From NCBI RefSeq assembly GCF_036507355.1, contig NZ_AP027877.1: a DNA stretch of 64,000 nt; one strand, written 5' to 3'. Under the pieces are notes generated by a model. The model saw only the letters and a program-made list of their open reading frames with translations. It had not been told where the DNA came from and ran no database searches. This document shows positions 2,222 to 19,247 of the stretch, in pieces (position 1 is the stretch's first letter; every line of letters begins with the position of its first letter). The position numbers and the translations under genes are program-made. Source of the DNA: Escherichia coli (lineage in GTDB: Bacteria > Pseudomonadota > Gammaproteobacteria > Enterobacterales > Enterobacteriaceae).

Positions 2222-3129
2222 AACGCGCTCCGGGTGTGAGACAGATTTTCAAAGGAGAGATCGGCATGAACCAGCAGTGTGCCGCGACGATGCGCCCAGC
2301 AGCCTGTAGAAACAGCAACGCCGATGGTTGACGGATGGCGGGCGGCAGATTCGATATGCACGCCCATCACTGAACTGTTGCCAGTCAGCCCTTGTGGACC
2401 AATCCCCAGACGGTTGAGTCCTTCTTCCAGGCGTAGCTCCAGCTCTGCCGCTTTTGGATTGGGATGGCGGCTGCCAATCGGGCGCAAAATGGCTTTTCGC
2501 GAGAGCACGGCGGCGGTTTCCACCGAGGTGGCGATGCCCACGCCCACCAGTACCGGTGGACAGGCGTTTACGGCGAGGGTGGAGATATTTTCGAAGACGA
2601 ATTTCACTACGCCTTCGTAGCCTTCTGACGGCATTAACACTTTCGAGCGGCCTGGTAGCGTGCAGCCGCCGCCTGCCATGTAAACTTCGATTTCCGCATC
2701 GTCACCGTCGGGGACGATATCCCAGGTGACCCACGGTACGCCGCTGCCGGTATTTTTGCCTGTGTTCACTTCGTCAAAAATTTCTACCGCATTGTGACGT
2801 AGTGGCGCTTTGACGGTTGCCTCTTCCACGGCTTGTTTGAGTATGCTTTGCAGCTCGCCAAGCAGTGGGAAGCGGGAACCGACTTTAACGAAGAACATAA
2901 TCTCCCCGGTGTCCTGACAGGCAGGACGATTCAGGTCAATCGCTTTTTGCATGTTGTCGAACATCGTATGGTAGATAATTTTCCCCATCGACGACGTTTC
3001 GGCATCCTTTAGCTGTTTTAGTTTATCCACCACGTCATCAGGCATTCGGGTAGAAATCATGGCGGTAAAGTTAGCGACAATCTCCGTCAACTTATTCACT
3101 GCCTGTTGCTTATTACTTTCGCTCATCAT
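2218..3129 (-). CDS. ttdA: L(+)-tartrate dehydratase alpha subunit
   Basis: ORF 2218..3183; start placed at ATG 3129 (MMSESNKQQ..., 303 aa); Fe-S hydro-lyase alpha-type sequence. Confidence 0.9.
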
Positions 3130-3335
3130 GGCAACTCCAGTTTTTGTATTTGTCTGGAAAAATTCACCGCCACAAACTACCACTAAAAATGTGGTTTTAT
3201 ATTTTTTGCCACCGTGAATATGTAATTAACAGTTCGTGAATCAACGCGAAAATAAGAATGAATATTGCGCCAGAGCAGGGAATGGCAATGTTTTGCGAAA
3301 TACACTGCGCTTATCACAACTGCGGATAATTAACG
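3130..3335. promoter_or_regulatory. Divergent ttdR / ttdA control region
   Basis: AT-rich 206-bp gap between divergent LysR regulator and its target operon. Confidence 0.5.
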
Positions 3336-4268
3336 ATGCTGAATAGCTGGCCTTTAGCCAAAGATTTGCAGGTACTGGTAGAAATCGTCCACAGCGGGAG
3401 TTTTAGCGCCGCAGCGGCGACCCTTGGGCAAACGCCTGCATTCGTCACCAAGCGGATCCAAATCCTTGAAAATACGCTGGCAACAACGCTGCTGAACCGA
3501 TCCGCTCGCGGCGTGGCGCTGACTGAAAGTGGCCAACGTTGTTACGAACATGCGCTGGAAATCCTCACCCAATATCAGCGACTGGTCGATGACGTCACGC
3601 AAATCAAAACGCGCCCGGAGGGGATGATTCGTATTGGCTGTAGTTTTGGTTTTGGGCGCAGCCATATTGCGCCAGCCATTACCGAACTGATGCGCAATTA
3701 TCCTGAGTTACAGGTGCATTTTGAATTGTTCGATCGACAAATTGATTTAGTGCAGGATAATATTGATCTGGATATTCGTATTAATGACGAAATTCCTGAT
3801 TATTATATTGCGCATCTGTTAACGAAAAATAAAAGAATATTATGCGCAGCACCTGAGTATCTGCAAAAATATCCGCAGCCACAATCCTTACAGGAATTAA
3901 GTCGTCATGACTGTCTGGTGACCAAAGAGCGCGATATGACCCACGGAATATGGGAGTTGGGGAACGGTCAGGAGAAAAAATCGGTGAAGGTTAGCGGGCA
4001 TCTTTCCTCCAATAGCGGCGAGATAGTGCTGCAATGGGCGCTGGAGGGCAAAGGGATTATGCTGCGTTCCGAGTGGGATGTGTTGCCGTTTCTGGAGAGT
4101 GGCAAACTGGTGCGAGTATTGCCGGAGTATGCACAAAGCGCCAATATCTGGGCTGTTTACCGGGAGCCGCTCTATCGCAGCATGAAATTACGTGTCTGCG
4201 TGGAATTTCTGGCGGCATGGTGCCAGCAACGGCTGGGCAAGCCCGATGAAGGCTATCAGGTCATGTAG
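3336..4268 (+). CDS. ttdR: LysR-family transcriptional activator of the ttd operon
   Basis: 310-aa ORF with N-terminal HTH and LysR substrate-binding domain, divergent from ttdA. Confidence 0.9.
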
Positions 4269-14182: not shown

Positions 14183-14261
14183 CCGGAAAGCGGTTCACAG
14201 ATCTCGCTTCGTACATGGCAGGCCTATTGACGCTGTTGTTTTTTCAACCTAGAGTAAAGGA

Positions 14262-14410
14262 ACAAGGGTAAGGGAGGATTTCTCCCCCCTCTGATGAGTT
14301 GTTAGTAAGTCGGGAAACTTAACAGTAACAACACAACCAGTATGATGACGAGCTTCATCATAACCCTTTCCTTCTATAAGGCCCCTTCCTCGGGAGGGGC
14401 TTTCCCGTTT
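14262..14410 (+). ncRNA. sibE: Sib-family antisense sRNA (antitoxin), copy proximal to hldE
   Basis: Promoter TTGACG(14227-32)-17 bp-TAGAGT(14250-55); terminator hairpin gcccctTcc/ggaggggc + U-tract at 14380-14410; fully antisense to the ibs ORF; ends approximate; D/E naming by synteny only. Confidence 0.7.
14302..14361 (-). CDS. ibsE: Ibs-family type I toxin, 19 aa (MMKLVIILVVLLLLSFPTY)
   Basis: Hand-translated minus-strand ORF, ATG 14361 to TAA 14302-04; hydrophobic 19-mer typical of Ibs; below ORF-track size cut-off. Confidence 0.75.
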   Translation of the reverse strand: MMKLVIILVVLLLLSFPTY

Positions 14411-14637
14411 CAGCCCCTTGCTGTCTCCCCGATTGTTGATGAGCGCCGGACCCCGCGCAACGCTTTCCCTGAAGCAGTTTTGCCTTCCCCGAGCGGTCAC
14501 GCAAAACGCTGCAACGTCCTGAGCATTTGCACCTTTTAGCGGAACGCAGATATAAAAAATCCCCGGCTTTTTGGGCCAGGGATATGTGTTAATGAAACCT
14601 TCTTGACGCTGATTTTTTTTCAACCTAAAGTAAAGGA

Positions 14638-14786
14638 ACAAGGGTGAGGGAGGATTTCTCCCCCCTCTGATTGGCTGTTAATAAGCTGCGAAACTTACGA
14701 GTAACAACACAATCAGTATGATGACGAGCTTCATCATAACCCTTTCCTTCTGTAAGGCCCCTTCCTCGGGAGGGGCTTTCCCGTTT
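14638..14786 (+). ncRNA. sibD: Sib-family antisense sRNA (antitoxin), copy proximal to yqiK
   Basis: Promoter TTGACG(14603-08)-17 bp-TAAAGT(14626-31); same terminator hairpin at 14756-14786; antisense to second ibs ORF. Confidence 0.7.
14678..14737 (-). CDS. ibsD: Ibs-family type I toxin, 19 aa (MMKLVIILIVLLLVSFAAY)
   Basis: Hand-translated minus-strand ORF, ATG 14737 to TAA 14678-80; paralog of the copy at 14302..14361. Confidence 0.75.
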   Translation of the reverse strand: MMKLVIILIVLLLVSFAAY

Positions 14787-14975: not shown

Positions 14976-16637
14976 TTATTCTACGTTTTCGGCGACGGGA
15001 GTTGTTGAGGTTAAGGGTGAAGTCAATGCAGCCAGTGAGCCGCCTGAAACGCCAATTTCATTGAGCAAGGAGTCAATCAGTGGTGCCTGTGTGCGGTAAG
15101 AGAGTGCGGCTGATAATGCTTGTTCCGCCAGGTTTCCGCCCCCCACATTACCCGTGTTTGCATCCCCCGCAGTACCACCACGATTCAGTCCATCGACCTG
15201 TATGATCTTAATACCATCGATCGACTTCATCGGCTCAACGGATTTCTCAATTACCGCAGGCAGCGCCTGCAATAATGCCAGTTTGAATTTAAGGCTGGTT
15301 TGTTCATCAGAAAGTACGTTGATAGCATCGTTCAGCGCACGTTGCGCTTCTGCTTCCGCCAGACCCTTTTTACGTGTAGCTTCGGCTAACTCAACGATAG
15401 CCGCCGCCTGCATCTCTGCGGCTTCTTTTTCTGCTTTTGCCCGCACGGTCAGTTCAACCGCTTTGGTTTCTGCATCCTGCGCGGCAGCGATTAGGGCAAC
15501 TTGTTTAGCACGATCGGCTTCTGCGGTCTGGCGAGTGGTTCCAACGTTTTGTTGGGCGCTTACTGCTTCTGCGAGTGCAAGGTTAGCACGCGCTTCTGCC
15601 TGGGACTGTTGTTCCGATTTGGCGGCAATAGCGATCGATTTCGTCTGGTTAGCGATTTCGGTGACCTGCTGCTGTTCGATCTCTTTAATGCGAACTTCAC
15701 GTTCAGCTTCAACTTTTCTTGAGCGGACGGCCTGTTCGCGGTCGATTTCTGTTTCCTGAATCTGTCGTTCAGCCAGAATTCGCGTCTGCTCTGCTTCACG
15801 ACGACGTTCAGCTTCAAAAGCCGCAATTTTCGCATTCTGCTCAGCGGTACGGGTTTTAACCTGCTGCTCCTGCTCAAGCGTCATAAACGCTTCTTGTTGT
15901 TCAATCTCCAACTTGCGCGAAAGTGCATCACGGTTTTTCTCACGCACCGCAACTTCTACATCCTGTTCAACTTCGTTACGCTCGCGGCGACGGCGCTCCG
16001 TCTCCTGAGTCAGTTTGGTTAAACCTTCGGCGTCAAAGGCATTGTTCGGATTGAAATGTTCTTTCGAGGTCTGGTTAAAGTTGGTAAGTGAAACGCTTTC
16101 CAGTTCCAGGCCGTTTTTCGACAGATCTTCAGCTACGGTATTTTGTACTCCCTGCACGAAGTTCTCGCGGGTATCCTGTAACTCATGCATGGTCATTTGT
16201 GCAGCTGTTGCACGGAGGGCATCGACGAATTTATCTTCAACCAACATACGTAAATCTTCTGGTGATAGCGTGCGTTGCCCCAACGTTTGGGCAGCGGTGG
16301 CAATCCCTTCTACTGAAGGTTTTACCCGCACAAAGAAAGCGACTACTACATCGACGCGCATACGATCTTTCGTAATCAGGCTATCAATGGTTGAGCGGCT
16401 GACTTCCAGCTTCAGAGTATTCATATTGATGGGGATTATTTCATGAAAGATCGGCATCACGATTGCGCCACCGCTCATTACCACTTTTTGCCCACCTAAA
16501 CCAGTACGAACAAAAGCTTGCTCTGCCGAAGCTCGACGATAGAGCCTGGCGAAAATAATTCCAATAATAAACAGAATGCATACGGCAATAATCGCGGTAA
16601 ACATCCAGGAGGGCACAGAATTAACAATATCATCCAT
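14976..16637 (-). CDS. yqiK: Flotillin-like SPFH/band-7 family membrane protein
   Basis: 553 aa; N-terminal TM helix, SPFH domain, long Ala/Glu/Lys/Arg-rich coiled-coil. Confidence 0.9.
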   Translation of the reverse strand: MDDIVNSVPSWMFTAIIAVCILFIIGIIFARLYRRASAEQAFVRTGLGGQKVVMSGGAIVMPIFHEIIPINMNTLKLEVSRSTIDSLITKDRMRVDVVVAFFVRVKPSVEGIATAAQTLGQRTLSPEDLRMLVEDKFVDALRATAAQMTMHELQDTRENFVQGVQNTVAEDLSKNGLELESVSLTNFNQTSKEHFNPNNAFDAEGLTKLTQETERRRRERNEVEQDVEVAVREKNRDALSRKLEIEQQEAFMTLEQEQQVKTRTAEQNAKIAAFEAERRREAEQTRILAERQIQETEIDREQAVRSRKVEAEREVRIKEIEQQQVTEIANQTKSIAIAAKSEQQSQAEARANLALAEAVSAQQNVGTTRQTAEADRAKQVALIAAAQDAETKAVELTVRAKAEKEAAEMQAAAIVELAEATRKKGLAEAEAQRALNDAINVLSDEQTSLKFKLALLQALPAVIEKSVEPMKSIDGIKIIQVDGLNRGGTAGDANTGNVGGGNLAEQALSAALSYRTQAPLIDSLLNEIGVSGGSLAALTSPLTSTTPVAENVE

Positions 16638-17298
16638 TATTAAATTTCCTTTTGATTAATAAATTACAATATTTGGGGCCAGGGATTGTTTTCCGCCAAA
16701 TATCGCGTTGCAGAAAGTCGGCAAATAATTAACACTTTGTCTCCTTTAGTGAAAATTTTTCCTTCTTCAGGCTCCAGTAGTAAATAATGTATTTGGCCAA
16801 ATTGATCGGTGAGTTTTCCTTCGCAGGGATTACCTGAAGTGGCTTGATGACCGGTAATTAATGCCATGCTACCAATATATTCTTCTTCTGTAATAGCTGA
16901 ACTATGGTCGCGTGGAATCCAGGGCGCAACTATTTTACCGGTATAATGCACCGCAATAATCGTAAACAGTAAACTGACAGGAACCACGAACAGGTTCGAC
17001 AGTGGTGATTGCCAGACCATGATGCAGGCATGCTGCAACAGGATGCCAATAAGACCAAAAAAACCAGCCAGCAAGCAGAGAACGACGAGAGCTGGCAATC
17101 TTCCGATATTGAGATAATGAAGTGCCTGGCTAATATGACCTGTGGTTATGGAATCATAATGGTCAAGATGTGCATCAAGAGCACCGGAGAGCATGTGACC
17201 GCAGATAAGCGCTAAAATTTCTAAAAGGCCGATCAACAGTACAGGTGATGCTGCCAACTTACTGATTTAGTGTATGATGGTGTTTTTGAGGTGCTCCA

Positions 17299-17574
17299 GT
17301 GGCTTCTGTTTCTATCAGCTGTCCCTCCTGTTCAGCTACTGACGGGGTGGTGCGTAACGGCAAAAGCACCGCCGGACATCAGCGCTATCTCTGCTCTCAC
17401 TGCCGTAAAACATGGCAACTGCAGTTCACTTACACCGCTTCTCAACCCGGTACGCACCAGAAAATCATTGATATGGCCATGAATGGCGTTGGATGCCGGG
17501 CAACAGCCCGCATTATGGGCGTTGGCCTCAACACGATTTTACGTCACTTAAAAAACTCAGGCCGCAGTCGGTAA
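17299..17574 (+). CDS. insA: IS1 InsA (transposition repressor, zinc-finger/HTH)
   Basis: 91 aa, [40 protein letters not shown]... Confidence 0.95.
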
Positions 17575-17996
17575 CCTCGCGCATACAGCCGGGCAGTGAC
17601 GTCATCGTCTGCGCGGAAATGGACGAACAGTGGGGCTATGTCGGGGCTAAATCGCGCCAGCGCTGGCTGTTTTACGCGTATGACAGGCTCCGGAAGACGG
17701 TTGTTGCGCACGTATTCGGTGAACGCACGATGGCGACGCTGGGGCGTCTTATGAGCCTGCTGTCACCCTTTGACGTGGTGATATGGATGACGGATGGCTG
17801 GCCGCTGTATGAATCCCGCCTGAAGGGAAAGCTGCACGTAATCAGCAAGCGATATACGCAGCGAATTGAGCGGCATAACCTGAATCTGAGGCAGCACCTG
17901 GCACGGCTGGGACGGAAGTCGCTGTCGTTCTCAAAATCGGTGGAGCTGCATGACAAAGTCATCGGGCATTATCTGAACATAAAACACTATCAATAA
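17493..17996 (+). CDS. insB: IS1 InsB' frame (made as InsAB' transposase by -1 frameshift)
   Basis: 167-aa ORF in the -1 frame relative to insA; A6C slippery motif at 17550-17556. Confidence 0.9.
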
Positions 17997-18339
17997 GTTG
18001 GAGTCATTACCAACAGTACAAAGGAAATAGCGAAAAGATAAGGGGTATTATAGTCGGCGAATAAAATCATATGTCACTCCAATGTCCATTTAGTGACGCA
18101 ATATTTACTTTGGGATAGTTTCCTTGCTTGCATTTATCTTTGTTAATAATAACATATGTTAGAGAAGTTCTGGAAGAGAAAGTCTTTTAATATGGTTTTT
18201 TTATTTTTCACTAAAAAGTGTGATCGGGGACAATATATTTACGCACGTTATGTTTAAAGGCACTACACTGATTGGGGAATACTGAAATCAGAAAAAGCAT
18301 ATGGCCTTAAAAGGTATGCGATAACCGGAGGATGTGCTT

Positions 18340-18540
18340 ATGGATCATAGTCTTAATTCTTTAAATAATTTCGATTTCCTGGCGCGTAGTTTTGCCAGAA
18401 TGCACGCAGAAGGTCGCCCGGTCGATATTCTGGCCGTTACTGGTAACATGGATGAAGAACATAGAACCTGGTTTTGCGCACGTTATGCCTGGTATTGCCA
18501 ACAGATGATGCAAACCAGAGAACTTGAATTAGAACACTGA
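18340..18540 (+). CDS. glgS: GlgS (surface composition regulator, formerly glycogen synthesis protein)
   Basis: ORF 18334..18540; start at ATG 18340 gives the 66-aa [27 protein letters not shown]... protein. Confidence 0.9.
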
Positions 18541-18574
18541 TATGACGGGCCGTCTGGCCCGTTTTTGTGTTGCT
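18541..18574. terminator. Terminator hairpin between convergent glgS and ubiK
   Basis: cgggccgtctggcccg stem-loop followed by TTTTTG. Confidence 0.6.
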
Positions 18575-18874
18575 TTATTCTGCTTTATCAATAGGCGGGA
18601 TAGCCGGAGGAGATTGAAGATCTGCTATCGAATTATTGCGCGCTTCCAGTTCACTGATGCGCTGCTCCAGTAACGCCAGTTTTTCACGAGTCCGTAACAG
18701 GACTTGCGTCTGTACGTCGAATTCTTCGCGGCTCACCAGATCGAGACGCGTCAGCTGCGCTTGTAGGGTTTGGCGGATTTTTTTCTCCACATCTTCCCCG
18801 AACTCCCTGATTCCTTTAGGCATTGATTCGTGAACCTGGCGAGCGATTTGCTCAATTTTTTTCGGGTCAATCAT
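18575..18874 (-). CDS. ubiK: Ubiquinone biosynthesis accessory factor UbiK (YqiC)
   Basis: ORF 18575..18934; start at ATG 18874 ([21 protein letters not shown]...), coiled-coil BMFP family. Confidence 0.85.
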
Positions 18875-18989
18875 TGTAGTTTCCCTGTACTGATAGGTGT
18901 TGAGTGCCATTGTAGTGCGATAAGGGTAAGTCATAAACCAGAATTATGTGAAGCTATGCGTTGCTGCCGCTAATCATTAGCGTTATAGT

Positions 18990-19247
18990 GAATCCGCTTA
19001 TTCTCAGGGCGGGGCGAAATTCCCCACCGGCGGTAAATCAACTCAGTTGAAAGCCCGCGAGCGCTTTGGGTGCGAACTCAAAGGACAGCAGATCCGGTGT
19101 AATTCCGGGGCCGACGGTTAGAGTCCGGATGGGAGAGAGTAACGATTCTGTCGGGCATGGACCCGCTCACGTTATTTTGGCTATATGCCGCCACTCCTAA
19201 GACTGCCCTGATTCTGGTAACCATAATTTTAGTGAGGTTTTTTTACC
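18990..19247 (+). promoter_or_regulatory. ribB 5' leader with FMN riboswitch (RFN element / sroG)
   Basis: Conserved RFN segments aggGCGGGGCGAAATTCCCCACCGGCGGTAAA ... GCCCGCGAGCGC ... CAGCAGATCCGGTGTAATTCCGGGGCCGACGGT ... AGTCCGGATGGGAGAGAG directly upstream of ribB; ends approximate. Confidence 0.8.

Follow-up and report, generated by a model that had tools for sequence, protein, structure and literature searches.

Organization of the yqiJ–yqiK locus

The 64-kb stretch of Escherichia coli DNA analysed here (the window) carries on its minus strand the gene pair yqiJ–yqiK, described as one operon (PMC2636767), with its first gene interrupted by a copy of IS1 (Table 1). The element lies in the plus orientation and splits yqiJ at codons 18–20. 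Read along the minus strand, an AT-rich upstream region is followed by a GGAG Shine–Dalgarno sequence (18077–18080), the yqiJ ATG at 18070, 20 native codons, IS1 and the remainder of yqiJ. On this strand, the right end of IS1 is entered at GGTAATGACTCC and its left end is exited, 768 bp on, at GGCAGCATCACC, after which the yqiJ remainder resumes with a repeat of TGTACTGTT. The downstream gene, yqiK, follows the yqiJ stop codon after a gap of 26 nt and has its own Shine–Dalgarno sequence, AAGGAA, at 16646–16651. Given this gap, its own ribosome-binding site and its intact frame, yqiK could be translated from any mRNA that arrives. Deletion of yqiK has been found to cause no growth or stress phenotype, and native YqiK is barely detectable (PMC2636767; bioRxiv 10.1101/2022.07.25.501378; PMC6788730).

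Table 1 Features of the interrupted yqiJ–yqiK locus (window coordinates)
Feature	Position	Strand	Basis and remarks
yqiK, flotillin/SPFH, 553 aa, intact, downstream operon partner	14976..16637	-	ORF list; Band_7 and Flot domains
yqiJ remainder ORF, 197 aa, TTG start	16664..17257	-	ORF list; native codons 18–209 (16664–17242) plus 14 nt of IRL
Target-site duplication, copy 1, AACAGTACA on plus strand	17235..17243	.	Sequence
Complete IS1, 768 bp, IS1A-like	17244..18011	+	IRL match, inverted-repeat pair, length, Pfam domains
IRL (left inverted repeat)	17244..17266	+	Exact canonical 23-mer; abuts yqiJ remainder
Outward −35-like hexamer TTGGCA in IRL	17252..17257	-	PWM score 6.0; opens with the TTG proposed as start codon
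insA, 91 aa	17299..17574	+	ORF list, Pfam
insB′ frame	17493..17996	+	ORF list, Pfam
IRR (right inverted repeat)	17989..18011	-	18/23 identical to IRL; abuts yqiJ 5′ stub
yqiJ 5′ stub ORF, 26 residues	17990..18070	-	Sequence; native ATG (18070), 20 native and 6 IS1 codons, TGA
Target-site duplication, copy 2, AACAGTACA on plus strand	18012..18020	.	Sequence

The element has the features that define the IS1 family, namely a length of about 768 bp, imperfect terminal inverted repeats beginning with GGT, an A6C frameshift site and a 9-bp target duplication, and its anatomy is that described for IS1 (PMC12428005). A domain search of its two open reading frames returned the Pfam domains Zn_ribbon_InsA, HTH_Tnp_IS1 and DDE_Tnp_IS1, and a computed −1 frameshift at TTAAAAAAC (17548–17556) yields a 232-aa InsAB′ transposase. 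The first 358 bp are 100% identical to an annotated IS1A-family element, and the 23-mer of IRL occurs once within the 64-kb window, with 0 occurrences expected by chance. Judged from these features, the copy looks structurally intact and potentially active. In silico removal of IS1 and one duplicate restored a 209-aa YqiJ that matches exactly a public protein present on at least 1,000 contigs. Because the element is complete, is accompanied by a 9-bp duplication and leaves a common YqiJ on removal, we attribute the insertion to a standard IS1 transposition event.

Translation signals are distributed unevenly between the two halves of the split gene. The stop codon of the 5′ stub (TGA, 17990–17992) lies six codons into IRR. 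Of the products of the split gene, only this hydrophobic 26-residue peptide has good signals for translation, the native GGAG Shine–Dalgarno sequence and upstream region having been kept.

A reading frame extended into the left end of IS1

The first-pass annotation had raised the possibility that the rest of yqiJ forms an IS1-fused gene with an altered N terminus, and its account of the reading frame agrees with ours throughout. The ORF list and the sequence confirm that the yqiJ frame is open for exactly 14 nt into IRL (17244–17257). The TTG at 17255–17257 is the sole canonical start codon in the IS part, with an in-frame TAA at 17267–17269 and the codons ATC AGT AAG between the two. Comparison with the IS1-deleted, 209-aa YqiJ likewise confirms that the 17 native N-terminal residues are swapped for MAASP, the P codon of which consists of CC from IS1 and T from the target.

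This arrangement is generic to the element. Read outward, both ends of IS1 have, in one of the three frames, an AAG TTG shortly past a stop codon, and every in-frame IS1 insertion therefore gives an ORF of this kind. The 14-nt extension is a mechanical by-product of in-frame insertion and is no special signal in itself.

Anti-Shine–Dalgarno pairing, calculated for the 16S 3′ end and the 20 nt upstream of each start, was −0.2 kcal/mol for the TTG at 17255–17257, as against −5.9 at the start codon of native yqiJ and −5.6 at that of yqiK. Within the first 103 codons, all other in-frame starts, among them TTG 17236, ATG 17194 and TTG 17098, paired at −3.5 or weaker. A translated IS–host fusion gene should be transcribed from a point upstream of a start codon that has a ribosome-binding site, and this combination appears to be lacking in the remnant. 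As a coding sequence, the remnant is still recognizable as a member of the YqiJ family, with both domains above the gathering score (YqiJ_N, 52.2 bits, profile positions 11–115 of 116; YqiJ_OB, 54.2 bits) and an operon shared with the SPFH/flotillin gene yqiK. The hydrophobic core of the first helix is kept and the N-terminal half of that helix is lost; over 19 residues, hydropathy still peaks at 2.32, versus 2.81 in the native protein.

Promoter signals at the IS1 left end

IS1 supplies an outward −35 box only (PMC8764528, PMC8876359), and a neighbouring gene is activated only when a correctly spaced −10 element is present; otherwise, expression is unchanged or lower (PMC8764528; PMC9330008; PMC8876359). 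The best outward −35-like hexamer in IRL is TTGGCA, which agrees with the consensus at five of six positions and lies 8 bp from the IS end. We take this hexamer, on the strength of its sequence, to be the published IS1 −35 box. No −10 element was found in the yqiJ flank at spacers of 15–19 from TTGGCA, the five hexamers concerned (TTGATC, TGATCG, GATCGG, ATCGGC and TCGGCC) scoring −4.9 to −12, and a consensus scan found no promoter-like site on the minus strand between 16400 and 18400. The left end thus offers an outward −35-like hexamer for a hybrid promoter, and the flank lacks the −10 hexamer at a spacing of about 16–18 bp, which bears out the earlier remark that this end has no convincing −10 element. 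Moreover, a promoter in the IS1 end and a TTG start are mutually exclusive, because transcripts from TTGGCA would begin about 30 nt downstream of the TTG. Machida et al., in J Mol Biol in 1984, reportedly described promoter activity in both ends of IS1. In our literature search, no paper set out the sequence of the IS1 −35 box or the polarity of IS1 at first hand.

A relaxed position weight matrix (PWM) scan of the minus strand returned candidates at chance level: TGGAGC-18-TACACT within IS1 (ending at 17269), TTATTG-17-GATAAT near IRR, and TTCAGC-16-TATATT inside yqiJ (16901–16874). Some transcription over the remnant and yqiK may arise from such sites. Intrinsic terminators were also considered and set aside: two weak minus-strand hairpins were found (18014–17997 and 17384–17370), compared with 2.1 expected by chance.

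IS1 insertions in yqiJ of other E. coli genomes

None of the complete RefSeq E. coli genomes was identical to the window across the junction. In the draft assembly GCA_021425525.1, one contig breaks off in IS1 at this junction, with a single difference from the window in 3,300 nt. The draft belongs to the lineage of the window and lends independent support to the junction. Fourteen search matches that covered the site were considered as carriers of the same allele and rejected with one exception: only E. coli X14-3 shares the junction. Thirteen of the 14 regions were fetched, and those from genomes other than X14-3 have IS1 elsewhere in yqiJ, at the yqiJ–yqiK junction or beyond glgS.

In the unrelated background of X14-3 (NZ_CP084055.1), an IS1 shares the exact site, orientation and 9-bp duplication of the copy in the window (positions 3336–4121 of the fetched region), and a second IS1 lies at the yqiJ–yqiK junction. 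Compared with the window, there are 8 differences in the 768 positions of the first IS1 and 7 in the 580 of the yqiJ remainder. IS1 is absent here from by far the larger part of 5,426 genomes, which makes an independent insertion in X14-3 more parsimonious than shared ancestry, and the two insertions apparently arose separately. In another draft assembly, IS1 lies at yqiJ codons 3–5 in the opposite orientation (positions 1640–2407 of the fetched region); the first 60 nt of yqiJ are a probable hot spot for IS1. Other strains have IS1 in the middle and 3′ parts of yqiJ, at the yqiJ–yqiK junction and at an IS1-associated rearrangement. This occurrence at several positions, together with the lack of a yqiK deletion phenotype, suggests that the yqiJ/yqiK locus is expendable.

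We also tried an exact 176-aa, ATG-start YqiJ product, found on about 110 contigs, as a marker of a widespread IS1 lineage and rejected it, as IS1 adjoins only 1 of the 10 loci listed. In the gene calls of several of the others, a short ORF without an IS covers the start of yqiJ ahead of the 176-aa call, which may point to 5′ frameshifts or to sequencing errors in these assemblies. Truncated YqiJ entries are common in databases.

Neither the exact 197-aa product nor the exact YqiK of the window has an entry in the gene-position index, and this YqiK is represented by a single record in the protein collection (BED20882.1). Compared with the sister assembly and other strains, it has a private substitution at codon 366 (E366G), a single event that may or may not reflect relaxed constraint.

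Probable insertional inactivation of yqiJ and the fate of yqiK

The insertion anatomy, the missing Shine–Dalgarno pairing and the missing −10 element are features of the DNA itself, and in our judgement the locus is very probably a case of insertional inactivation of yqiJ by IS1, with polar reduction of yqiK and with a 197-codon ORF that is not a translated fusion gene. In this reading, a structurally intact IS1 transposed into codons 18–20 and duplicated 9 bp of the target. Translation from the native start would then stop six codons inside IRR and produce only the 26-residue stub, with the 192 remaining native codons cut off from their promoter-proximal context and ribosome-binding site. Transcripts over the remnant and yqiK would come from weak internal promoters, or from polymerase reading through IS1, where about 750 nt of RNA antisense to insB/insA go untranslated. 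In classical genetics, IS1 is reported to be polar in both orientations, through Rho. Read-through across the element in the window would probably be strongly polar too, with little transcript reaching the remnant and yqiK, and yqiK would be made at a reduced level from its own Shine–Dalgarno sequence; it is in this way that we infer the polarity of the insertion and the expression state of yqiK.

Because the native promoter, the Shine–Dalgarno sequence and 20 codons are kept upstream of IS1 (18012–18070 and beyond), read-through across IS1, rather than a promoter in the IS1 end, is the likeliest source of any such transcript. The first-pass annotation had the insertion anatomy right, but it left out the native 5′ half of yqiJ that lies upstream of the element. 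Western blotting or proteomics alone would be a weak test of yqiJ–yqiK expression, as even the unbroken K-12 operon gives hardly any detectable YqiK.

The strongest competing account concerns yqiK, and we regard it as a possibility with the balance against it. It holds that yqiJ alone is lost and that yqiK stays near its normal, very low level by way of a promoter inside yqiJ or residual read-through, which would leave a flotillin without its NfeD-like partner. The intact frame, own Shine–Dalgarno sequence and 26-nt gap imply that yqiK does not depend on translational coupling, and some 240 nt upstream of yqiK is the best PWM match in yqiJ, TTCAGC-16-TATATT, at the 99.99th percentile. However, a PWM score this high is reached by chance about once every 2 kb, the two genes are described as one operon (PMC2636767), and our literature search found no internal transcription start. 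The private E366G substitution would fit relaxed constraint on YqiK, which counts against this account, but it is a single event.

A second account, which we judge unlikely, is that a MAASP–YqiJ fusion lacking residues 1–17 is made from the TTG, with its mRNA supplied by read-through from the native promoter or by a promoter near IRR that reads into IS1. An open frame and a TTG are present, and the native promoter region and the whole of IS1 lie upstream on the same strand. The protein itself would keep the hydrophobic core of its first helix, with a hydropathy peak of 2.32 against the native 2.81, as well as both Pfam domains above threshold, and a product of this kind was accepted in X14-3 by the annotation pipeline PGAP. 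E. coli does show a low rate of initiation without a Shine–Dalgarno sequence and at TTG codons. Against this stand a weak start codon with next to no pairing upstream, the generic presence of the TTG in both IS1 ends, and the loss of ten N-terminal YqiJ_N profile positions and half of the first helix. By analogy with classical IS1 polarity, the roughly 750 nt of untranslated RNA ahead of the TTG would favour Rho-dependent termination. The idea of an IS1-fused, N-terminally altered YqiJ, raised by the first-pass annotation, is therefore unsupported: its TTG has no Shine–Dalgarno pairing and sits inside the −35-like hexamer, with no −10 element at a workable spacing.

Two further accounts are both very improbable. 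In one, TTGGCA in IRL and a −10 element in the yqiJ flank would form a hybrid promoter that drives the remnant and yqiK, possibly raising yqiK expression. Such IS1 promoters are documented (PMC9330008, PMC8764528, PMC8876359), and TTGGCA is both close to consensus and close to the IS end. However, all five flanking hexamers have strongly negative −10 scores and lack a TG extension, and the consensus scan of the minus strand was empty. InsA binds both IS1 inverted repeats (PMC12428005), and InsA on IRL would further occlude the candidate site. Furthermore, with its transcription start downstream of the TTG, this promoter would be unable to express the proposed fusion. In the other, codons 18–20 would be a true hot spot, where two or more lineages independently took up IS1 at the same base and in one orientation, and a MAASP–YqiJ made at a low level by read-through would be selected, remodelling rather than abolishing the NfeD-like partner of YqiK. 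Finally, misplacement of the IS1 copy into yqiJ during assembly can be dismissed for practical purposes: E. coli genomes carry multiple IS1 copies (at a median of 10 places each) and repeats are often misassembled, but the full-length element is flanked by a perfect 9-bp duplication, the same IRL junction ends a contig of an independent draft of the same lineage and both junctions are present in the complete X14-3 genome.

Taken as an inactivation of yqiJ, the event is ordinary and is already in public data. Its biological weight is small, as it adds one IS1 knockout in an operon that is dispensable, poorly expressed and without a reported deletion phenotype. Strains of this lineage would nevertheless be natural yqiJ nulls with an intact yqiK and could be of use for asking whether a bacterial flotillin needs its NfeD partner.

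Comparison with known IS1 insertions and with database annotation

The insertion resembles the classical IS1 polar mutations of gal and lac and the IS1-disrupted pseudogenes of E. coli and Shigella in that a 768-bp IS1 with a 9-bp duplication sits in the first gene of a two-gene operon. As in the classical mutations, the downstream gene is intact and cut off from its promoter, and we find no substantial difference, the polarity being something we infer here. The IS1 hybrid promoters of bla TEM-1, acrEF and afaA in ST131 (PMC8764528; PMC9330008, which cites Prentki 1986) likewise have an outward −35-like hexamer in the inverted repeat, but the −10 element that they require at 16–18 bp is absent from the yqiJ flank. 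In this respect, the yqiJ case is closer to osmB and ugd in ST131, where IS1 lowered transcription or left it unchanged (PMC8764528). The disrupted gene belongs to the group of NfeD–SPFH pairs (YqiJ–YqiK, YbbJ–QmcA and YuaF–FloT), in which an NfeD-like membrane partner with an OB fold is encoded upstream of a flotillin gene; in the window, the gene for the NfeD-like partner is broken.

In X14-3, PGAP annotates the remnant (LCR13_RS10780, WP_430670662.1) as an intact yqiJ coding sequence of 200 aa, at positions 2765–3367 of the fetched region on the minus strand. The start chosen is a non-canonical ATC within the inverted repeat, the first codon past the TAA in IS1 and three codons upstream of the TTG. 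The same 200-aa product, with the sequence found in the window, has been deposited from the sister draft GCA_021425525.1 as HBM8675065.1. Annotation is inconsistent in this respect, as remnants of a similar kind carry a pseudogene flag in other strains. The 'fusion protein' in public databases is a product of annotation and no proof of expression. Pipelines that turn remnants of this type into seemingly intact proteins allow IS–host chimeras to pollute protein databases.

Neighbouring features

Between yqiK and hldE, the plus strand carries two tandem Sib antitoxin RNAs at 14227–14376 and 14603–14752 (Rfam SIB_RNA, 141 and 148 bits). In related genomes, the corresponding positions bear annotated ibs genes for type I toxins, and the long overlapping ORFs listed at the Sib RNAs are repeat artefacts. 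On the other side of the locus, glgS is followed directly by ubiK (18334–18934); the yqi fimbrial operon of K-12-like strains is absent, as it is in 2,067 of 5,426 complete E. coli genomes. Upstream of ribB, an FMN riboswitch occupies 18996–19144.
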